Origin: an uncultured Acidobacteriota bacterium
GTDB lineage: Bacteria; Acidobacteriota; Thermoanaerobaculia; Gp7-AA8
Direction: 5' to 3'
DNA: 64,000 bases
Assembly: GCA_963758195.1 (NCBI GenBank)
Contig: CAVWUH010000002.1
Span: forward strand, 2,061,560 to 2,125,559
Part shown: positions 2,918-34,954 of the stretch, piece after piece
How positions within the stretch are numbered: position 1 is the first letter of the stretch
Layout of the letters: each line of letters begins with the position of its first letter
The notes under the pieces: generated by a model
The model's input: the letters and a program-made list of their open reading frames with translations, nothing else
What the model was told of the DNA's origin: nothing
The model's database searches: none
Made by a program: the position numbers and the translations under genes

Positions 2918-4471
<1,554 letters not shown>

Positions 4472-5343: not shown

Positions 5344-5417
5344 AGCTCGCAGCTCGCAGCTCGCAGCTCGCAGCGCAACCCAACTCCTGAGAGCTGAGAG
5401 CTGAGAGCTGAGAGCTC
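5344..5417. repeat. Tandem-heptamer hairpin B (AGCTCGC x4 / GAGAGCT x4), atpA-atpG intercistronic
   Basis: Four exact AGCTCGC units (5344-5371), a spacer AGCGCAACCCAACTCCT, then four exact GAGAGCT units (5389-5416). Six of 7 positions per unit are complementary. It fills the whole gap between the atpA stop (5418) and the atpG start (5339). Confidence 0.9.
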
Positions 5418-6961
<1,544 letters not shown>

Positions 6962-9847: not shown

Positions 9848-9914
9848 CGAGTCGTCCAGTCGCCGAGTCGCCGAGGAATCCTTGAAGACTCGTCGACTCG
9901 GAGACTCGACGACT
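9848..9914. repeat. Tandem-heptamer hairpin D (GAGTCGY type), parB-bactofilin intercistronic
   Basis: CGAGTCGT CCAGTCG CCGAGTCG CCGAG, loop GAATCCTTGAAG, then ACTCGTCG ACTCGGAG ACTCGACG ACT. It abuts the parB stop at 9913. Confidence 0.85.
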
Positions 9915-10796
9915 ATCTCCGTCGTCCCATGATCTCGTCGACGAGGCGGATCAATTCGTCTTCGCTGGCGAAGCGGACGTGAATCACGCCACCGCGGCGC
10001 TTGCGATCGATCTCGACTTTGCTACGCAAAGTTCTCGTTAGTTTGTCTTCCGCGTCCCGCGTGAAGATGTCTTTCTCTTTCTTCCGGAACCTCGGCCTTC
10101 GGCGAGCTCTCCGCGGCGAGCATTTCCGTCTGGCGGACATTCAGATTGCGCTTCACGACGCGCTCGGCGAGCTGCTCCTGCTTCTTCGTCGACTCGACGG
10201 CAAGGATCGCACGCGCGTGTCCCATCGAGAGCTGTCCCGCGGCGAGCAGTTTCTTCACGCCATCGGGCAGCCGGATCAGCCGCAGGAAGTTCGCGACCGT
10301 CGAGCGCTCTTTCCCCACGCGTTTCGAGATCTCTTCCTGCGTGAGACCGAACTCCTCGTGCAGCTGGTGGTAGGCGTAACGCCTCTTCGATCGGGTTCAG
10401 GTCCTCGCGCTGGATGTTCTCGATCAGCGCGACCTGGAGGACATCGCTGTCCGCCATCGTCTCTTTGATGACGACAGGGACGGTGTCGAGGCCCGCCTTC
10501 TGCGCGGCGCGGAAGCGGCGCTCGCCGGCGATGAGGCGATACTTATTGTCAGCAGTGCGCGTGACGACCAGCGGCTGGACGATCCCGTGCTCGCGGACGC
10601 TGCGCGCGAGCTCTTCGATCGACGCCTCGTTGAAGGTCTTGCGCGGCTGGTAAGGATTGGGCGAGATCTGCGCGATCGGGACGTGCGCAAGCCCGTCGCC
10701 GCGCGGCGCGGGTGGCGCTGGCGGCGCGGCTTCCTGCGGCCGCGACGGAATGAGAGCTCCGAGACCTCTGCCGAGCGCTTTCTTCTGCGTGCTCAT
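9913..10796 (-). CDS. parB: Chromosome partitioning protein ParB, at least 2 frame breaks
   Basis: MSTQKKALGRGLGALI, ParB box LIENIQREDLNPIEEA and HTH GKERSTVANFLRLIRLP are present. The C-terminus is RGGVIHVRFASEDELIRLVD. The pieces are spread over three frames. Confidence 0.9.
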
Positions 10797-14062: not shown

Positions 14063-15466
14063 TCACTTGCCGATACAAAACTTTCCGAAGATCTGCGCGA
14101 AGACGTCATTGCGCGTGATCGCACCGGTCAGGACGCCGAGGGAGTTGGCGCCGCTGTAGAGGTCGACGAGCACGATCTGCTCGTCGAGTCCGCTTTCGAG
14201 GGAATGTCGAGCAGACTGGAGACTGGCGGCGCAGTCGGCCACCGCTTGCTGCTGTCGTTCATTCACGAGAGCGCCTTCCGGCGCGACGAATCGCTCGCGC
14301 ACGAGCTCGTCGAGTCGCGTCAGCAGCTCATCGATTCCTTGATCGGTCATGGCGCTGATGGCGAAGGCGCTATCCGGCGCGGAAGCAAGGTCCACCTTCG
14401 TATAGACCACGAGTGGATTCTCCAGACTCGATAGCTCACGCCGATCTTCGTCGCTCAGACCGTCGCTGGCGTCGATCAGGTAGAGAACGATCTCTGCTTC
14501 GCGCGCGGCCGCACGCGCGCGCGCGACGCCGATTCCTTCCACCACATCCTCGCTCTCCCGAAGTCCCGCTGTATCGGCGAGCGTCACCGGCAAGCCGCCG
14601 ATCTCGATCGTCTCCCGCACGATGTCGCGCGTCGTTCCCGGGATCGGCGTCACGATCGCTCGATCGCTTCCCACCAGCCGGTTGAGCAACGTCGACTTTC
14701 CGGCGTTCGGCCGGCCGAGGATTACCGCATTCAAACCGGTGGTCGTCGCGTGGCCGCGGCGATAGGTATCGGCCATCGCCTCTACGTCGCGAAGCGCTTT
14801 GTCGATTTGAGACGACGACTCCTTGCGCGTGATGAACTCGTAGCCCTCTTCTGAAAAGTCGAGTGCCGCTTCGAGACGCGAGATCACGTCGAGCAGCGTC
14901 GAACGGATCGCTGACGCCTTCCGGCTTAACGCACCCTCGAGATTCGAGAGCGACAGCTTCGCCTGCAACGCCGTTCGCGAATTGATCAGGTCAGCGATCG
15001 ACTCCGCCTGCACGAGATCGAGCTTCCCGTTCAGCACCGCCCGCTCCGTGAACTCTCCCGGCTCGGCCATCCGCGCTCCGAGCGCAACGCAGGCGGCGAT
15101 CACCCGCTCGACGATGAGTGGATTGCCATGCAGCGTCAGCTCGACGAGATCGTTCCCAGTGAACGAGTGCGGAGCTTCGTAGCGAACGACAACGCAATCG
15201 TCCAGGCGCTCCGCATTGGTTGTCGGTTGTCGGTTATCGGTTGTCTGCGCGTCTTCGCCTTGCGGCCCAGACAACTGACAACTGACAACTGACAACTGCG
15301 GCGCTACGAACAGCGGCACGTGTGTGGCCTTCCGGATCGCCGGAAGTCCCGATCGCAGGAGTGCCGCAAGAACGGCTCCGCTCGCCGGTCCATCGATGCG
15401 CACGATCGCGAGTGCGCTGCGACCCAAGGAGGTCGCAGGCGCGACGATCGTGTCGCCCGTGCTCAC
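14063..15466 (-). CDS. mnmE: tRNA modification GTPase MnmE/TrmE carrying an in-frame 27-codon hairpin-repeat insertion
   Basis: G-domain GRPNAGKSTLLN and DTAGLRE, C-terminal CIGK. The N-terminal domain motif YEAPHSFTGNDLVEL is preceded by the foreign stretch PQLSVVSCQLSGPQGEDAQTTDNRQPTTNAE. GTG start. Confidence 0.9.
   Translation of the reverse strand: MSTGDTIVAPATSLGRSALAIVRIDGPASGAVLAALLRSGLPAIRKATHVPLFVAPQLSVVSCQLSGPQGEDAQTTDNRQPTTNAERLDDCVVVRYEAPHSFTGNDLVELTLHGNPLIVERVIAACVALGARMAEPGEFTERAVLNGKLDLVQAESIADLINSRTALQAKLSLSNLEGALSRKASAIRSTLLDVISRLEAALDFSEEGYEFITRKESSSQIDKALRDVEAMADTYRRGHATTTGLNAVILGRPNAGKSTLLNRLVGSDRAIVTPIPGTTRDIVRETIEIGGLPVTLADTAGLRESEDVVEGIGVARARAAAREAEIVLYLIDASDGLSDEDRRELSSLENPLVVYTKVDLASAPDSAFAISAMTDQGIDELLTRLDELVRERFVAPEGALVNERQQQAVADCAASLQSARHSLESGLDEQIVLVDLYSGANSLGVLTGAITRNDVFAQIFGKFCIGK
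15218..15298. repeat. Tandem-heptamer hairpin E (GGTTGTC x4 / GACAACT x4) inside the mnmE coding sequence
   Basis: GGTTGTC GGTTGTC GGTTATC GGTTGTC (15218-15245), a 24-nt loop, then GACAACT x4 (15270-15297). 81 nt equals 27 codons, so the frame is preserved. Confidence 0.9.
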
Positions 15467-16407
15467 GACTCCGGCGCCGGCTGCGCCTCGGCAGCCGCGG
15501 GCTCCTGTCCCACCGGCCGAAGCACGATGGCGACTCGCTTGTAGAACCCTTCGCCGCGCGACTCTGTCGTCACTTCCGCATCCTCGCGAAGCGCCATGTG
15601 CACGATGCGACGCTCGATCGGGCTCATCGCCGGAAGCAACTCCTCGCGCCCGCCGCTACGAACCCGCTCCGCCACTTCCTGCGCGCGCTTCTGGAGATCG
15701 CTGGTGCGCCGTTCCTTGAACTCTTCGCAATCGAGCTCGATCTCTTTCTCGACCTTGCGTCCAACCAGCGCTTTGTTCGCCAGCACCTGGATCGCGTCGA
15801 GCAGCTCGCCGTGTCGATCCGTCAGGAGACCGCTGTCCACGCCGTAAAGGCGGATGAGGATCCGCTCGTCGTTCTCTTCGGTCCGCAGCACGAGGTCGAG
15901 CTTCGCCAGGACGATCGTGTCTTCGCACCATTCGCGTACGAGCTTCGCGCCTTCCGACTCCGGACCTTGCTCCGGGATGTCCCCGAGGAACGTCTCGAAG
16001 TCGCCGGTCCGCAGCTCGCGACCGCCACGTCCGCGGCCACCGCCTCTTCCCCCGCCACGTCCTTCGCGCGGCGCAGAACCGCCACCCGCGCCGCGACCGC
16101 GACCTCCGCGGCCGCCTCGCTCACGGCCCGGACCGCAATCGGCGCGTGGAGCGCGCGTCTCACGCGGCTCGCGCGGCGCTTCGATGCGATTGCCGTCTCG
16201 TTCGATCGGCGGCGGCGGCGCGACGACGGCCGGTGCCGGCGCCTCGCGATTCACGTCCGCCTCGATCACGATCCGCTTGACGCCCCCGAGGAAGCCGCGC
16301 TTCTCCAGGAGGACGTGATAGGTCAACTGCCACCGCTCGACGCCCAGCGTCTCCGACGCATGCGTCAGCGCATCTTCGAGATTCCGACCTTCGAAACGCT
16401 GGCTCAT
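15463..16407 (-). CDS. jag: Jag/KhpB RNA-binding protein (Jag_N, KH, R3H) with an RGG-rich linker
   Basis: MSQRFEGRNLEDALTHASETLGV at the N-terminus and the R3H region ERRIVHMALRED. The central linker is GRERGGRGGRGRGAGGG...GRGGGRGGGRGRGG. The gene lies between mnmE and yidC. Confidence 0.8.
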   Translation of the reverse strand: MSQRFEGRNLEDALTHASETLGVERWQLTYHVLLEKRGFLGGVKRIVIEADVNREAPAPAVVAPPPPIERDGNRIEAPREPRETRAPRADCGPGRERGGRGGRGRGAGGGSAPREGRGGGRGGGRGRGGRELRTGDFETFLGDIPEQGPESEGAKLVREWCEDTIVLAKLDLVLRTEENDERILIRLYGVDSGLLTDRHGELLDAIQVLANKALVGRKVEKEIELDCEEFKERRTSDLQKRAQEVAERVRSGGREELLPAMSPIERRIVHMALREDAEVTTESRGEGFYKRVAIVLRPVGQEPAAAEAQPAPES

Positions 16408-16419
16408 CACTCTCCGCCG

Positions 16420-18085
16420 TTATGCATTCTGTACGTCATCGGGGTGGGTTTTCCACCACTTATTCATGATCGTCTGCTGAATGATCGTCAAGACGTTCTG
16501 CACCAGCCAGTACAACACGAGACCGCTCGGGAAGTCTTTGAACATGAACCCGAACATCAGCGGCATGATCAGGAACATCTTCCGCTGCGTCGGATCGCCC
16601 GTCGAAGGCGTGATGTACGTCTGCAGGAACATCGTGATCGTCATCAGGATCGGCAGCACGTAGTACGGATCCTTCGTCCGACAGGTCGTGAATCCACAAC
16701 ATGAACGGCGCGCCGCGCAACTCGATCGCCCGCGACAGCAGGCCGTAAAAGCCCCAGAGAATCGGCAGCTGAATCACGAGAGGCAAACAGCCCGCCATCG
16801 GGTTGATGCCCTCTTTCTGATAGAGCTGCATCATCTCCACGTTCATCTTCTGGCGCTGCTCGGCGTCCGTCTTCGACTTCTTGTACTTCGCCTTGATGAC
16901 CTCCATCTTCGGCTGCACCTTCTGCATCTTCTTCATCGAGACGATGCTTTTGTGCTGCAGCGGATAGAGAACGATTTTGATGAGAATCGTCAGGACGATG
17001 ATGGCGAAGCCGTAGTTGTGCGTGTACTTGTTGATCCAGACCAGCGCCTCGAGAAAGAAGCGCGCGATCATGCCCAGCCAGCCGAACTGCAACGCACCCT
17101 CGAGGCCGTAGCGATCGAGAAGCTTCGTCTCCTTCGGACCGAAGAACGCCTGGCCTTCCACGACACCATTCACCGCGTTGACGCCGGCGTAGAGATCCGG
17201 GCGATTCTTCTTCGTCTTGGCGTCCTCGTAAAACACGACGCGCTGCAGGATCCCTTCGCCACCGCGCGTCGGGCGCAGCACGCTGAGGAAGTAGTTGTCC
17301 TCGAGGCCGACGTACTCGATGCCGGGGTGGAACTGCACCGAGTCCGCTTTCTCGCGAGAGATCACGCGGAACTTGCCCTCGCGCTGCACGACGCCGTTGC
17401 CGGTCATCACCACGCGCGAGTCCTGTTCCTCAGGCGCGAGCGTGCGCACGCCAGGCCCGATCTCGACGCGATACGGGACCGGCGGAGTGAGCGCGACCGC
17501 GAAGTCGAAGAGATACGGCTCGCTGCGGGAGAAGCGGAACGTCTTCGTCACGACGACGCGACCATCGGAGTAGCGATACTCGATGATGTGCTCTCCGCGG
17601 TCATCGCGTTCGGTGACCGCGTACAGCGCCTGGTTGATTCGCTCGTTCAGCGCGCGGTCCGTCGTGACGATGACGAACGGATAATCCCATCGGCCCGCTT
17701 CGCGCCTCTTCACCAGATCAACCGGTTCGTGACTCTGCTTCTGCTTGTACTTCTTCAACGTCAACGAAACGAGCTCCGCGCCGCGATTGGTGAAAACGGC
17801 GCGGTAATCGCCCGTATCGAAGACGCTGTTCTGCAGTCGCTGGCCGGCAACCGGAGCTACCGGTGCAGCCGCTGCGATCGACGCCGGAGCGGGCTGGCCC
17901 GCGGATGTTTGCGTGGCAGCCGCGGTCGTTGTGCCGGCAGTCGTGGTGGTGGTCGTCGTTTGCGCGGCCGTCTTCGGCGGCTGCGGTTTCTTGGCGAGCT
18001 CCGGGAAGAGCTTCGGTGCAATCGTCGCCCAGCCGAGGAGCACGCCGAGCGAGATCACGATCGCGAGAAAGATTCGTTTTTCCAT
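16420..18085 (-). CDS. yidC: Membrane protein insertase YidC, frame break near 16680
   Basis: N-terminal TM plus periplasmic domain, then [15 protein letters not shown], are in ORF 16460-18229. The C-terminal [20 protein letters not shown] is in ORF 16420-16659. Confidence 0.9.
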
Positions 18086-18955: not shown

Positions 18956-19047
18956 CGGTTGGCAGTTGGTGGTTGGCGGTCGGCAGGAGCGAAGCCACCC
19001 GGAGGTCGCGTCGTTCCACCGCCAACTCCCAACCGCCAACCGCCACC
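18956..19047. repeat. Tandem-heptamer hairpin F (GGTTGGC type) in the rpmH-dnaA divergent region
   Basis: CGGTTGG CAGTTGG TGGTTGG CGGTCGG C, a 31-nt loop, then CCACCG CCAACTC CCAACCG CCAACCG CCACC. Confidence 0.85.
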
Positions 19048-19180: not shown

Positions 19181-20491
19181 ATGAGCACGTGGAGCCAAGT
19201 CCTCAATCGAATCGAGCAGGTCGTAGATCGCACGGAGTATGACACCTGGCTCGCTCCGACTCGATTTCTCGCGCAGAATGGCGACACTCTCGATGTCGCC
19301 GTCCCCTCTCAACGCTACGTCGATGAGATTCGGGAACGCTTCGGTGCGCGCATCCGCGGAGTGCTCAACGAGATCTCTCCCGAGCGCGTCCAGATTCAGT
19401 TCGTGATCGACCGCTCCGCGGCCACCACCGACGACCTCGGACCGACCACCGCGGCGATCAAGGATGACATCCCCAACGCGCCGTTCAATCCTCGCTATCG
19501 TTTCGAAAGCTTCGTCGTCGGCAACTCGAATCAGCTCGCGCTCGCGGCCTCGAAGTCCATCGCCGAAAACCCGAGCGGCTCGTTCAATCCTCTCTTCATC
19601 TATGGTGGAGCGGGCCTCGGCAAGACACATCTCATCCAGGCCATCGGCCAGCAGATGCGGGAGATGCGGCCCCAGGCGCGCGTTCTCTACATGTCGGCGG
19701 AGATCTTCGTCACGGAGCTGATCACGTCCATTCGTTACGACCGCATGGCGCCGTTTCGCGAGCGCTACCGCTCCCTCGACGCGCTGCTCCTCGACGACAT
19801 TCAGTTCATCGCCGGCAAGGAGCGCACGCAGGAAGAGTTCTTTCACACGTTCAACGCGCTCTACGAATCGCAGAAACAGATCGTCTTCACGTCCGATCGC
19901 CCGCCGAAAGAGATCCCGACTCTCGAAGAACGCCTCCGTTCACGCTTCGAGTGGGGACTGACCGCTGATATCCAGCCTCCCGATCTCGAGACGAAGGTCG
20001 CCATCCTTCGCAAGAAGGCCGAAGACAAAGGTCTGAACCTGCCACAGGAAGTGGCGATCTTCATCGCCGAGCGCGTGCGCTCGAACATCCGCGAGCTCGA
20101 AGGACATCTGAACAAGGTCGCCGCATTCGCGTCGATGATTGGCAAGCCGGTCACCATCGAGCTCGTGAAAGAGGCGCTCAAAGACATCCTCTCGAAAGAA
20201 GACAAACCGATCACGCCGACGGAAATCCTTCGCGTGGTCGCCGCGCACTACGGGCTCAAGACCTCCGATCTGAAGCAGAAGAGCAACGCCCAGACGATCG
20301 CCTTTCCGCGGCAGGTGGCGATGTTCCTCTGCAAGGATCTGACGGATCTTTCCTATCCGGAGATCGGAAAGCTTTTCGCCGACAAGCACCACTCCACCGT
20401 CATGTACTCGGTGCAGCAGATCAAGAAGAAGATGGACAACGATCAACAGTTCGCGCGCACGGTCGACTCACTGGCGAAACAGTTCCGATGA
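19181..20491 (+). CDS. dnaA: Chromosomal replication initiator DnaA (intact)
   Basis: MSTWSQVLNRIEQ, Walker A GGAGLGKTHL and domain IV IAFPRQVAMFLCKDLTDLSYPEIGKLFADKHHSTVMYS. Confidence 0.95.
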   Translation: MSTWSQVLNRIEQVVDRTEYDTWLAPTRFLAQNGDTLDVAVPSQRYVDEIRERFGARIRGVLNEISPERVQIQFVIDRSAATTDDLGPTTAAIKDDIPNAPFNPRYRFESFVVGNSNQLALAASKSIAENPSGSFNPLFIYGGAGLGKTHLIQAIGQQMREMRPQARVLYMSAEIFVTELITSIRYDRMAPFRERYRSLDALLLDDIQFIAGKERTQEEFFHTFNALYESQKQIVFTSDRPPKEIPTLEERLRSRFEWGLTADIQPPDLETKVAILRKKAEDKGLNLPQEVAIFIAERVRSNIRELEGHLNKVAAFASMIGKPVTIELVKEALKDILSKEDKPITPTEILRVVAAHYGLKTSDLKQKSNAQTIAFPRQVAMFLCKDLTDLSYPEIGKLFADKHHSTVMYSVQQIKKKMDNDQQFARTVDSLAKQFR

Positions 20492-28319: not shown

Positions 28320-28604
28320 ATGGTCCGTCCCTCCCGGGACCGCCTGAATCAGCTTGGCAGGGATCTCGTCGACGCGCTCGCGCGGACGCGAGCCGTCGTG
28401 CTGCTCAAGGACCGCGATGCCGTGCAGCAGGCGGTGAGCCAGGCCCTCGCCGACGAGCTGCGTCGCGAGGAAGAGCGAGAGACCAGCGCCCGCAAGCGCA
28501 TCAACGCCCTGCAGCGCGCTCCGCGTCCCAACACGACCGAGTGGGAAGAGCTCTTCCGGAAGTTCGTCGAAGAAGAGTATCTCCGCGAAGGACTCGATTC
28601 GTAG
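28320..28604 (+). CDS. DUF507-like small protein
   Basis: From the ATG at 28320: MVRPSRDRLNQLGRDLVDALARTRAVVLLKD...EEYLREGLDS. The family assignment is from memory. Confidence 0.5.
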   Translation: MVRPSRDRLNQLGRDLVDALARTRAVVLLKDRDAVQQAVSQALADELRREEERETSARKRINALQRAPRPNTTEWEELFRKFVEEEYLREGLDS

Positions 28605-28633
28605 TTGTCGGTGGTCAGTTGTCGGTTGTCCGG
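28603..28633. repeat. Solo arm of a GGTTGTC-type tandem-heptamer element
   Basis: AGTTGTC GGTGGTC AGTTGTC GGTTGTC CGG starts in the TAG stop of the DUF507 gene. No complementary GACAAC arm follows. A CTGTGTAGCGACG-family palindrome follows instead. Confidence 0.7.
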
Positions 28634-30881: not shown

Positions 30882-30957
30882 TCCGGCATAGCTCAGTTGG
30901 TAGAGCAGCGGACTGTTAATCCGCGGGTCGTAGGTTCGAGTCCTACTGCCGGAGCCA
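30882..30957 (+). tRNA. tRNA-Asn (anticodon GTT), CCA encoded
   Basis: Hand-folded cloverleaf. Acceptor stem TCCGGCA/TGCCGGA, D stem GCTC/GAGC, anticodon stem GCGGA/TCCGC with loop CTGTTAA, T arm GTAGG-TTCGAGT-CCTAC, discriminator G plus CCA. Confidence 0.92.
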
Positions 30958-33719: not shown

Positions 33720-34880
33720 TCATCGCCCCGCGGAATCGGGGCGAGTCCAAGGATCCGAGAGACGCGCATCCACGAGCAACTCTTCATCGGTCAGCGCGCG
33801 AAGAAATGCGATGAGGTCCTGCTTTTCGTCAGCGGTGATCGTGAAGGGCTGCATCGCGCTGCTGCGCAGAGGATTGCGATCGCCGGCGCGTCCTCCCTTC
33901 GCGTAGTGATCGATGACTTCCGCGAGTGTGGCGATGCTGCCGTCGTGCATGTAGGGTGCGGTCACTGCGATGTTGCGCAGCGTCGGAACGCGGAAGCGGC
34001 CGACGTCGTTGCAGTCGTGCGTCGCGCGCGCGAGCCCCAGGTCGCGGTCGGGATACGCGCCGGCGCCGTCGAGGTTGTAGAGCGCGGTGTTCTCGAACGA
34101 GGGATCGGGGCGCGCCTTCTCCGCGTAGGCGCCGCCGCCCGCAAACGTGATTCCGCTGTGGCACGTTCCGCAACGTGCGCGATCGCCGAAGAAGATCCGC
34201 ATGCCGCGCTGTTCCGCGTCTGTCAGCGCGTGCGCGTCGCCGTCGAAGACGAAGCGGTCGTAGCGTGAGCGCCCCGAGAGGATCGATCGCTCGAACGAGG
34301 CGATTGCCTTGGCGATGTTTGCGAACGCGAATGCGTTCGGCTCGTGCGGAAACGCGGCAGCGAAGAGCGTTTTGTATTCGGGCACATCCGAGATCCGCGC
34401 GAGCACGATCGACTCGCGGTTCTTCACGCCCATCTCCACTGGCGTCTCGTTCATCAGCGGCACGAGTGCCTGTTGCTCGAGCGTCTGCATCGCGGGATTG
34501 CCCCACGTAAGCGCGACCACGTAGGCGCTGTTCGCGAGCGCCATCGAGCTGCGGAAGTGATCTTCGCCTGTCGAACCGATCGCGCGCGCGCGTCCGTCCG
34601 TGAACGCGCGCGCCTGTTGGTGGCAGTCGGCGCACGACTGCGTGCCGTTGCCCGAGAGACGCCGATCGTAGAAGAGGTAGCGGCCCAGCTCGACTTTCTC
34701 GCGAGTCGGAACGTTGGTCGCGGGAACGACCGGCAGCGGAAAGCCGCGAGGCACGCCGAGAATGCGGCGCAACTCGTTGGATGCGCGGAGGTCGTCTTTG
34801 CGTAGATCGTTCGCGAAGAGCGGCGCGACGATCGCAATCGCGAGCGTCACGCGTAGCGCGAACGAAGGCAACGGGTTCAC
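33720..34880 (-). CDS. Di-haem cytochrome c peroxidase (CCP/MauG family)
   Basis: Two haem motifs CADCH and CGTCH, plus PTLRNIAVTAPYMHDG. The start is set at GTG 34880 (VNPLPSFALRVTLAIAIV), because further upstream the ORF reads through hairpin H. Confidence 0.85.
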   Translation of the reverse strand: MNPLPSFALRVTLAIAIVAPLFANDLRKDDLRASNELRRILGVPRGFPLPVVPATNVPTREKVELGRYLFYDRRLSGNGTQSCADCHQQARAFTDGRARAIGSTGEDHFRSSMALANSAYVVALTWGNPAMQTLEQQALVPLMNETPVEMGVKNRESIVLARISDVPEYKTLFAAAFPHEPNAFAFANIAKAIASFERSILSGRSRYDRFVFDGDAHALTDAEQRGMRIFFGDRARCGTCHSGITFAGGGAYAEKARPDPSFENTALYNLDGAGAYPDRDLGLARATHDCNDVGRFRVPTLRNIAVTAPYMHDGSIATLAEVIDHYAKGGRAGDRNPLRSSAMQPFTITADEKQDLIAFLRALTDEELLVDARLSDPWTRPDSAGR

Positions 34881-34954
34881 GCGGAGACGCGGAGACACGG
34901 AGAGGAGGGCTGGCAGCAATCCTTTTTCTCCGCCCCTCCGCGTCTCCGCGTGAA
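34877..34954. repeat. Tandem-octamer hairpin H (CGCGGAGA type)
   Basis: TCA CGCGGAGA CGCGGAGA CACGGAGA GGAGGG, loop CTGGCAGCAATCC, then TTTTTCTCCGCCCCTCCGCGTCTCCGCGTGA. The outer 18 bp pair perfectly. Confidence 0.85.

Follow-up and report, generated by a model that had tools for sequence, protein, structure and literature searches.

An in-frame, heptamer-armed hairpin in mnmE of Thermoanaerobaculia that appears to be kept as nucleic acid rather than as protein

How does a hairpin built of tandem heptamers come to lie inside the coding sequence of a conserved tRNA-modification GTPase, and is it the peptide or the nucleic acid that is being kept? This question is raised by the gene mnmE in a 64,000-nucleotide stretch of DNA (the window) from an uncultured Acidobacteriota bacterium (Thermoanaerobaculia, Gp7-AA8; GenBank assembly GCA_963758195.1, contig CAVWUH010000002.1, positions 2,061,560 to 2,125,559). 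Our analysis makes it probable that the insert, tolerated by the protein and maintained as nucleic acid, is an in-frame representative of a class of hairpins that extends across the lineage. We define this class by arms that each consist of about four tandem 7- or 8-nt units (~28 nt) and by loops of 3-50 nt.

The mnmE hairpin occupies 81 nt, or 27 codons, of the window (15218-15298), and the reading frame is kept. On the plus strand, one arm reads GGTTGTC GGTTGTC GGTTATC GGTTGTC (15218-15245); it is followed by a 24-nt loop (15246-15269) and an array of GACAACT (15270-15298). Tandem Repeats Finder returned 4.0 copies of GGTTGTC and 4.1 copies of GACAACT, the latter with 100% matches, so that the sequence and the program both agree exactly with the anatomy given by the first-pass annotation, and the observation is confirmed as real. 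The gene itself lies on the minus strand (14063-15466, 467 amino acids). In its sense, the 5′ arm is (AGTTGTC)x4 (15270-15298), encoding QLSVVSCQLS; the loop encodes roughly GPQGEDA; and the 3′ arm is GACAACC GATAACC GACAACC GACAACC (15218-15245), encoding QTTDNRQPTT. The two arms converge at a distance of 24 nt, and the 5′ arm is G-rich, although the GGTTGTC unit has GG at most and lacks the G-tracts of at least 3 that confer G-quadruplex potential.

Both strands of the element fold much more stably than shuffled sequence does, the plus strand at −55.7 kcal/mol (z = −8.2) and the minus, or mnmE sense, strand at −50.8 kcal/mol (z = −7.3). The spacer position of the unit forms an A·C mismatch on the sense strand and a G·U pair on the opposite strand, as had been worked out beforehand from the letters. 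A terminator scan of both strands found no terminator-like site at the element, and a promoter scan gave no match there. Rfam 15, searched at gathering score over window positions 1-40000, returned only a tRNA (30882-30954) and no match to the element.

The open reading frame (ORF) of MnmE is unbroken, and MnmE domains flank the insert (Pfam TrmE_N at residues 6-148, MnmE_helical, and MMR_HSR1). In the AlphaFold2 model, the insert (residues ~54-86) falls between the predicted strands 48-53 and 87-96 of TrmE_N. When compared with solved MnmE structures, none of which contains the insert, residues 5-49 and 84-467 align, whereas residues 50-83 face about 5 residues in the Thermotoga protein. Pfam and the structural alignment thus bear out that the insertion keeps the frame and falls in the N-terminal domain, shortly before the YEAPHSFTG motif. 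The modeling that the first-pass annotation had proposed predicts a disordered loop, with the insert rendered as low-confidence coil (predicted local distance difference test score, pLDDT, about 43, residues 61-80 included). Most likely, judging from the model, the insert sits in the turn of a β-hairpin and is translated as a tolerated, disordered surface loop.

Homologues of the protein assign the source to Thermoanaerobaculia, and an identical MnmE is known from a contig of 5.08 Mb. To place the insert in its lineage, we compared 120 MnmE orthologues. At exactly the same turn, 45 of the 120 carry at least 8 extra residues; in the others, the connection measures 7-13 residues. Insert-bearing and insert-free proteins are interleaved on a neighbor-joining tree built with the insert masked, sisters differ in its presence, and ~60% of the close orthologues lack it. 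Several orthologues retain deletion footprints (P0114, LLSV-AHEV; P0071, HEP-AAG-TAPLLDD) or one-arm remnants (P0063, 5′ arm only; P0086, 3′ arm only). Locus L085 (2553-4100, protein P0056) bears two complete GTTGTC hairpins in tandem, which add 79 residues and are each followed by AGCCGAAGGTGC, a duplication of the whole element. As read from these orthologues, the insert is old and common to a large Thermoanaerobaculia subclade with many secondary losses. It is missing from distant MnmEs and from many close ones, and it is not confined to this genome. Neither did the orthologues display a conserved, non-repetitive loop of equal length; they have a repetitive hairpin or no loop.

The DNA of 11 mnmE copies, all in the same reading frame, revealed how the arms have changed. 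The unit pairs (5′/3′ arm) are GTTGTC/GACAAC in the window, L021, L023, and L085; GGTGTC/GACACC in L081; GGCGTC/GACGCC in L082; GGCGTT/AACGCC in L086 and L210; and GGCTTC/GAAGCC in L209. At each step between pairs, a substitution in one arm is matched by its complement on the other, and the change is repeated in all units. In a covariation test on the 11 related sequences, aligned by register with three units per arm, 81% of the cells were paired, compared with 27-42% when the partners were slid, and both sides had changed in 12 of the 21 pairs. The covariation score of 0.395 exceeded the slid controls (≤0.122) and was not reached in any of 500 shuffles. No relation was found between the loop sequences of the orthologues.

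The encoded peptide tracks the DNA unit, from SVVGSQLS...QTTDNRQPTT to PGVGYQVSG...QIPDTRHPT and PGFGLRASG...PTPDARRP; where the unit changes, the peptide changes non-conservatively and the pairing is kept. Judged from these alignments, the arm units have undergone compensatory evolution. Five compensated unit pairs and a peptide that follows the DNA suggest that selection or drive acts on the nucleic acid and not on the peptide. The in-frame copy amounts to a natural experiment, because peptide and pairing can be read separately in one sequence, and its outcome is that pairing is what is kept.

Translation leaves its own mark on the element. Repeats of GACAACT contain TGA in all three frames, and none of the three is open on the plus strand of the element; the mnmE sense strand uses GACAACC. 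In the sense 3′ arm, replacing C by T in the spacer of unit 2 would give an in-frame TGA, and no other spacer would do so. Homogenization of this arm to GACAACT is thus impossible, and stop avoidance forbids an all-T array without forcing four Cs. We rejected stop-codon avoidance as the full cause of the A·C mismatches because only spacer 2 is affected and because L086 has C·A mismatches without a stop constraint. The sense fold is the weaker one in 6 of 7 in-frame mnmE copies, by 4-16 kcal/mol, with sense-strand mismatches at different positions in different lineages, which extends to the orthologues the weakening that had been expected of the sense transcript in the window. Intergenic copies of known transcription direction show no such folding bias between sense and antisense (15 versus 14), and we rejected RNA-level selection on their sense transcripts on this ground. 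Possible causes of the weak sense fold in mnmE are easier translation, avoidance of double-strand RNase, and a structure needed on the antisense strand or in DNA.

The mnmE element had been treated as singular, but it turned out to be one of an abundant class. The window holds five further hairpins with tandem 7- or 8-nt arms and one half-element, all of them between genes according to Pfam scans, and their arms measure ~28 nt irrespective of the unit. The script that detected 5 tandem-armed hairpins in the window found none in 100 dinucleotide shuffles of it. A hairpin of the GTTGTC/GACAAC family (4393-4471, period 7) takes up the whole atpG-atpD spacer between the stop codon and the ribosome-binding site and has an orthologue in L018. 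The atpA-atpG spacer is filled by (AGCTCGC)x4...(CTGAGAG)x4 (5344-5416, period 7), with 1 mismatch per unit. A hairpin of 8-nt units, CGAGTCGC/GACTCGAC, occupies the spacer between parB and a bactofilin gene (9848-9914). Another, CGGTTGG/ACCGCCA (18956-19045, period 7), lies ~135 nt upstream of the dnaA start in what is presumably an origin-proximal intergenic region; a simple motif search found no rpmH. The half-element, a single GTTGTC-type array (28603-28630, period 7), begins at the stop codon of a DUF507 gene. The fifth hairpin, again of 8-nt units (ACGCGGAG/TCTCCGCG, 34879-34951), is located in the 5′ leader that precedes a cytochrome c peroxidase gene and abuts the GTG start of this gene. 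On the sense strand, its 5′ arm is GGAG-rich and its 3′ arm is CCUCC-like, ending at the GTG start, which is followed by the signal peptide MNPLPSFALRVTLAIAIVAPLFA; this hairpin could sequester the start region of the gene. Three of the siblings (at 4393, 5344, and 34879) thus lie just upstream of start codons.

Beyond the window, 22 Thermoanaerobaculia loci yielded 23 tandem-armed hairpins in 376 kb (~1 per 16 kb), compared with 9 in 940 kb from 58 loci of other phyla, 3 of these in one Sumerlaeia contig. A second, enlarged census counted 34 in 574 kb. On inspection, all census hairpins outside mnmE proved to be intergenic or false positives. Among the intragenic candidates that we discarded, the one in gyrB of L012 was a period-6 coincidence in conserved coding sequence, one in L009 lay in a spurious ORF, and those in L014, L017, and at window position 34879 are actually located just upstream of the true start codons. 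The search for other in-frame copies that the first-pass annotation had suggested therefore ended with mnmE as the only gene that has them in the DNA examined.

The GTTGTC/GACAAC family also occurs in many soil metagenome contigs. A metagenome search for (GACAACN)x3 returned 120 loci, and among the first 80, which we inspected, none was in mnmE, many adjoined stop or start codons, and a GTTGTC partner lay upstream of the array in 13 and downstream in 1. At the protein level, a 45-amino acid synthetic peptide query for further in-frame copies gave no scoring match, and an exhaustive HMMER search with the 32-amino acid insert gave one match, by chance, to a PKD-repeat protein; both results are uninformative either way. 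The alignment of the 120 orthologues showed a minor second insertion-prone loop in MnmE, after residue ~362-367 of the G domain (6 of 120). Extra residues at this loop number 37 in P0105 and 16 in P0070, and the short inserts in P0039 (NRQLVAANRQ) and P0065 (…GRPTTP) resemble heptamer translations at the level of protein.

The hairpins share a pronounced polarity. All 2.26 Mb examined (the window and L001-L210) contained 100 hairpins in 64 unit families, from which 3 ties were excluded at each level. The 5′ arm had more G than C in 81 of the 97 hairpins with a G/C bias and less in 16 (p = 1e-11); by unit family, the split was 49 to 12 among 61 (p = 2e-6). The rule holds on both strands, the 5′ arm being rich in G or GT and the 3′ arm in C or AC. 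Units are also reused at several loci within one genome, at three in the window and in L009 and at two each in L004, L083, and L084. The L009 copies (6213-6390, 9886-9974, and 19475-19601) are much longer 8-nt arrays of as many as 10 GGTTGCWR units, enclosed by outer GGTCTCGCGG/CCGCGAGACC repeats; they share flanks and loop motifs and have the appearance of a composite dispersed element.

Intergenic sites allowed us to follow the hairpins as they change in place. At the atpA-atpG junction, L084 reads TAAG-AGGTCTC-AG-caagcc-GCGAGCT-AACCATG, with one unit per arm where the window has four, between identical flanks. Other genomes have plain direct heptamer tandems or nothing at this junction, and no target-site duplication or conserved termini were seen between filled and empty junctions. 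In L208 and L082, the direct tandems include the stop codon (TAAGACC x3; TAAGAGC TAAGAAC) and have no inverted partner; heptamer slippage at stop codons seems to be common in this lineage. The orthologous copy in L003 (19829-19902) has the same two unit variants as window 5344-5416 (a = AGCTCTC, b = GCGAGCT; rc, reverse complement) in the order rc(b)x3 [a loop b] rc(a)x3, whereas the window has a x4 loop b x4. In L003, recombination between the arms appears to have inverted the central portion.

The atpG-atpD slot is occupied by GTTGTC units in the window and L018, by GAACGAT in L004 and L083, and by AGCAAC in L084, and it is empty in L081, L082, and L208. Between the window and L018, 4-fold degenerate mnmE sites are 52% identical, compared with 50 of 54 positions (93%) in the arms of this hairpin, which have the same variant units in the same positions; their loops cannot be aligned. 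The hairpins exactly fill the interval between the stop codon and the following ribosome-binding site or start codon. As for the mnmE hairpin of the window, its arms are perfectly homogeneous (the single GGTTATC unit aside) and the 5′ arm exceeds that of relatives in length, which points to recent re-amplification of one unit. Unit reuse across loci and the change of unit number in place together indicate that dispersal and in-place change both occur.

The junction between jag and mnmE is a recurrent site of such elements. The jag gene (15463-16410, minus strand; Jag_N, KH, and R3H domains) overlaps the mnmE start by 4 nt, leaving no intergenic space at this operon junction. In L208, inside an otherwise insert-free clade, a different GC-rich hairpin is found at the same mnmE codon. 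L083 has a single (CCGCCAA)x4 array at the mnmE site, with the unit of its own atpF-atpH hairpin and of the window hairpin at 18956-19045. In L002, a GAGGGCA/CCGCCCT hairpin lies between the jag stop and the MnmE core, and its 5′ arm holds the only in-frame ATG, the mnmE start. No in-frame hairpin was found in ~20 equally sampled neighboring genes. This clustering fits an unusually permissive protein as well as selection for a stem-loop at this operon position.

Several features of the neighboring genes deserve mention. An 18-nt tandem repeat in jag (16017-16058) encodes an Arg/Gly-rich linker (GRGGRGGGRGRGG) and is codon-compatible, unlike the heptamer arrays. The yidC gene changes frame at GAAGGATCC (~16660-16700), and atpA (5418-6961) is split into ORFs 6326-6961 and 5418-6329 and a short third-frame piece. 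Both breaks are probably single-base indels, assembly errors rather than pseudogenes. The frame of mnmE had been set against many broken genes in the window; it is indeed kept, but the contrast is weak because the breaks inspected, in yidC (near 16670) and atpA, look like single-base indels.

We propose that an ancestor of the subclade acquired the hairpin in the turn of the N-terminal β-hairpin of MnmE. Its arm units would have changed in concert and stayed complementary; unit number would have changed in place by slippage, and the element would often have been deleted or halved. Pairing may be kept by templated correction within the hairpin together with slippage, and selection for a stem-loop where jag meets mnmE may add to this. 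Coding would add a constraint of its own, with the sense 3′ arm barred from GACAACT and the fold of the sense mRNA kept weaker than that of the antisense strand.

Several points weigh against this proposal. Templated correction alone leaves unexplained why the arms are 93% identical between the window and L018 when 4-fold sites are 52% identical, and neutral templated correction does not account for the G-rich polarity of the 5′ arm. The even split among intergenic copies lends no support to selection on mRNA folding. L084, the closest relative (85% amino acid identity), has let its mnmE hairpin decay, so that maintenance is not universal. The covariation register was set by hand on only 11 related sequences, parallel unit changes in one array are not independent events, and a neighbor-joining tree is no rigorous test of gain versus loss. 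Any function of the hairpin is hypothetical.

The alternative that fares best holds that the hairpins are selfish or neutral DNA. A small palindrome would grow in both arms by polymerase slippage of ~7 nt, its complementarity would be kept by quasi-palindrome template switching, and no function would be involved; the mnmE copy would be trapped there because imprecise deletion would break the gene. This is a real possibility, though on balance we think it does not hold. It accommodates the symmetric change from 1 + 1 to 4 + 4 units between identical flanks, the direct tandems at the same junctions in L208 and L082, the intergenic copies without strand bias, and the frequency of loss and decay, and bacterial heptamer over-representation has been ascribed to slippage in work cited in PMC4692102 and PMC4679880. 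It is at odds with arms far more conserved than neutral sites, down to the positions of variant units; with the strong polarity across unit families; with hairpins that span exactly from a stop codon to a ribosome-binding site or start codon; and with three independent hairpin events in mnmE as against none in the equally sampled neighboring genes.

Alternatively, the hairpins might be elements of the miniature inverted-repeat transposable element (MITE) or REP type, mobilized by a transposase in trans and inserted into mnmE, possibly repeatedly, at a preferred target. The recurrence of units within genomes would agree with this, especially in L009, where the three copies share flanks and similar loops, as would the identical order of variant units in mnmE and intergenic copies and the different hairpin at the same codon in L208. 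We nevertheless consider it unlikely, since filled and empty sites reveal neither target-site duplication nor conserved termini, no resemblance links the loops of different copies, arms change their number of units in place, and the mnmE variants are homologous in position and reading frame, as would be expected if they had evolved where they are. No transposase turned up in the 64-kb window, although no search was aimed at transposases.

More speculatively, the hairpins may owe their existence to, or serve, a dedicated polar process, with the mnmE copy as a functional, intragenic punctuation mark, an idea to which we give little credence. One candidate process would be a protein that reads heptamer arrays as "operon punctuation" between a stop codon and the next start; another would be synthesis directed from 3′ ends, producing G/T-rich units to either side of a lesion. 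In mnmE, punctuation could set the dosage of MnmE/MnmG relative to the upstream rpmH-rnpA-yidC-jag at a junction where genes overlap. If true, it would account for the conservation of the arms, the G-rich 5′ polarity, the recurrence at mnmE, and a weakened sense fold that is found only in translated copies.

It is very improbable that the insert serves MnmE as an additional, functional loop, an adaptation of the protein to which the DNA repeat is incidental. QTTDNRQPTT does recur in many orthologues, and the insert persists over deep divergence. This peptide, however, is the mere three-frame translation of (GACAACC)n, as also listed in Table 3 of PMC4679880, and ~60% of close orthologues do without the insert. 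A peptide that changes non-conservatively with the unit as pairing is preserved and a region modeled as low-confidence coil likewise argue against a role at the level of the protein. Finally, an artefact of assembly or sequencing (a fold-back chimera at the hairpin, for instance) can be dismissed for practical purposes: the apparent single-base frameshifts in yidC and atpA do indicate an imperfect assembly, but many independent assemblies (NCBI, ENA, JGI, and Logan; metagenome-assembled genomes and metagenomes) have this hairpin, in frame, at the identical codon.

The over-representation of heptamers in bacteria has long been noted, and its explanation is unsettled, with polymerase slippage, mobile elements, and binding sites for regulators as the contenders. 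The mnmE system offers experimental handles on this problem in its arm-specific markers, its alleles of 1 + 1 versus 4 + 4 units, the G-rich polarity of the 5′ arm, and an asymmetry confined to translated copies. It also carries a warning for annotation, as low-complexity loops such as QTTDNRQPTT/SVVGSQLS may come from the translation of repeat DNA and need not have evolved as features of the protein.

With limited access to the literature, we found no report of such hairpins in Acidobacteriota, although one may exist, nor any of tandem units that evolve in concert, with compensatory changes, within a conserved gene. The cyanobacterial STRR units CCCCAGT, TTGGTCA, and CAACAGT are neither rotations nor complements of GTTGTCA, and we set them aside. 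Membership among the MITEs was also rejected, because filled and empty junctions differ without target-site duplication and unit number changes between identical flanks. REP/BIME and REPIN elements (PMC3116915) are likewise short palindromes, abundant and lineage-specific, that often lie within operons from stop to start; they differ from the heptamer-armed hairpins in having a fixed family sequence, a partner RAYT transposase, and no tandem-unit arms.

By sequence, the closest known system is formed by the TAACTGA/CAACTGA direct repeats of Beggiatoaceae, Cyanobacteria, and Bacteroidetes (MacGregor 2015, PMC4679880). Their unit is also 7 nt long, and the GACAACT of the window is CAACTGA rotated, one base off TAACTGA. 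Those arrays have 2-6 copies and are mostly intergenic, adjoining start codons; forward TAACTGA arrays give stops in all three frames, and a minority of reverse-oriented arrays are translated in ORFs at tolerant positions, with translations (QLTTDN- and SVVSCQL; Table 3) as in the MnmE insert. Arrays of that type are direct, intergenic, and upstream of starts, whereas the mnmE copy is an intragenic, inverted pair. Only one inverted pair is found in 170 sets there, in contrast to the facing arrays and ~28-bp hairpin described here, and our hairpins further differ in a unit that varies by locus, in their Acidobacteriota host, and, for the mnmE copy, in compensatory evolution inside a conserved domain of a housekeeping enzyme.

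By architecture, the closest are the inverted GGGAATC pairs of Xanthomonas (Rehm et al. 2015, PMC4692102), two short convergent heptamer arrays that are able to form a stem-loop and number 70-75 cases per genome. They are intergenic, their length varies between related species with the repeat type preserved, and, as here, the G-rich array is 5′ on each strand. Xanthomonas has one unit genome-wide, with G-quadruplex potential, unlike the many units of the present class, most of them without G-runs, and that report describes neither an in-frame copy in a conserved gene nor covariation of the arms. By behavior, the closest are the Rickettsia palindromic elements (RPE; reviewed in PMC10969869), which are palindromic repeats inserted in frame, translated at a tolerant position of the protein, and long kept, as is the mnmE hairpin. 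RPE are sequence families of 100-150 bp found in many genes and lack tandem-unit arms; the elements described here measure 70-90 nt, have tandem heptamer arms, and are in frame only in mnmE in the DNA examined; kinship in sequence between the two is not expected. It is this architecture, in a Thermoanaerobaculia host, that sets the mnmE element apart from RPE.

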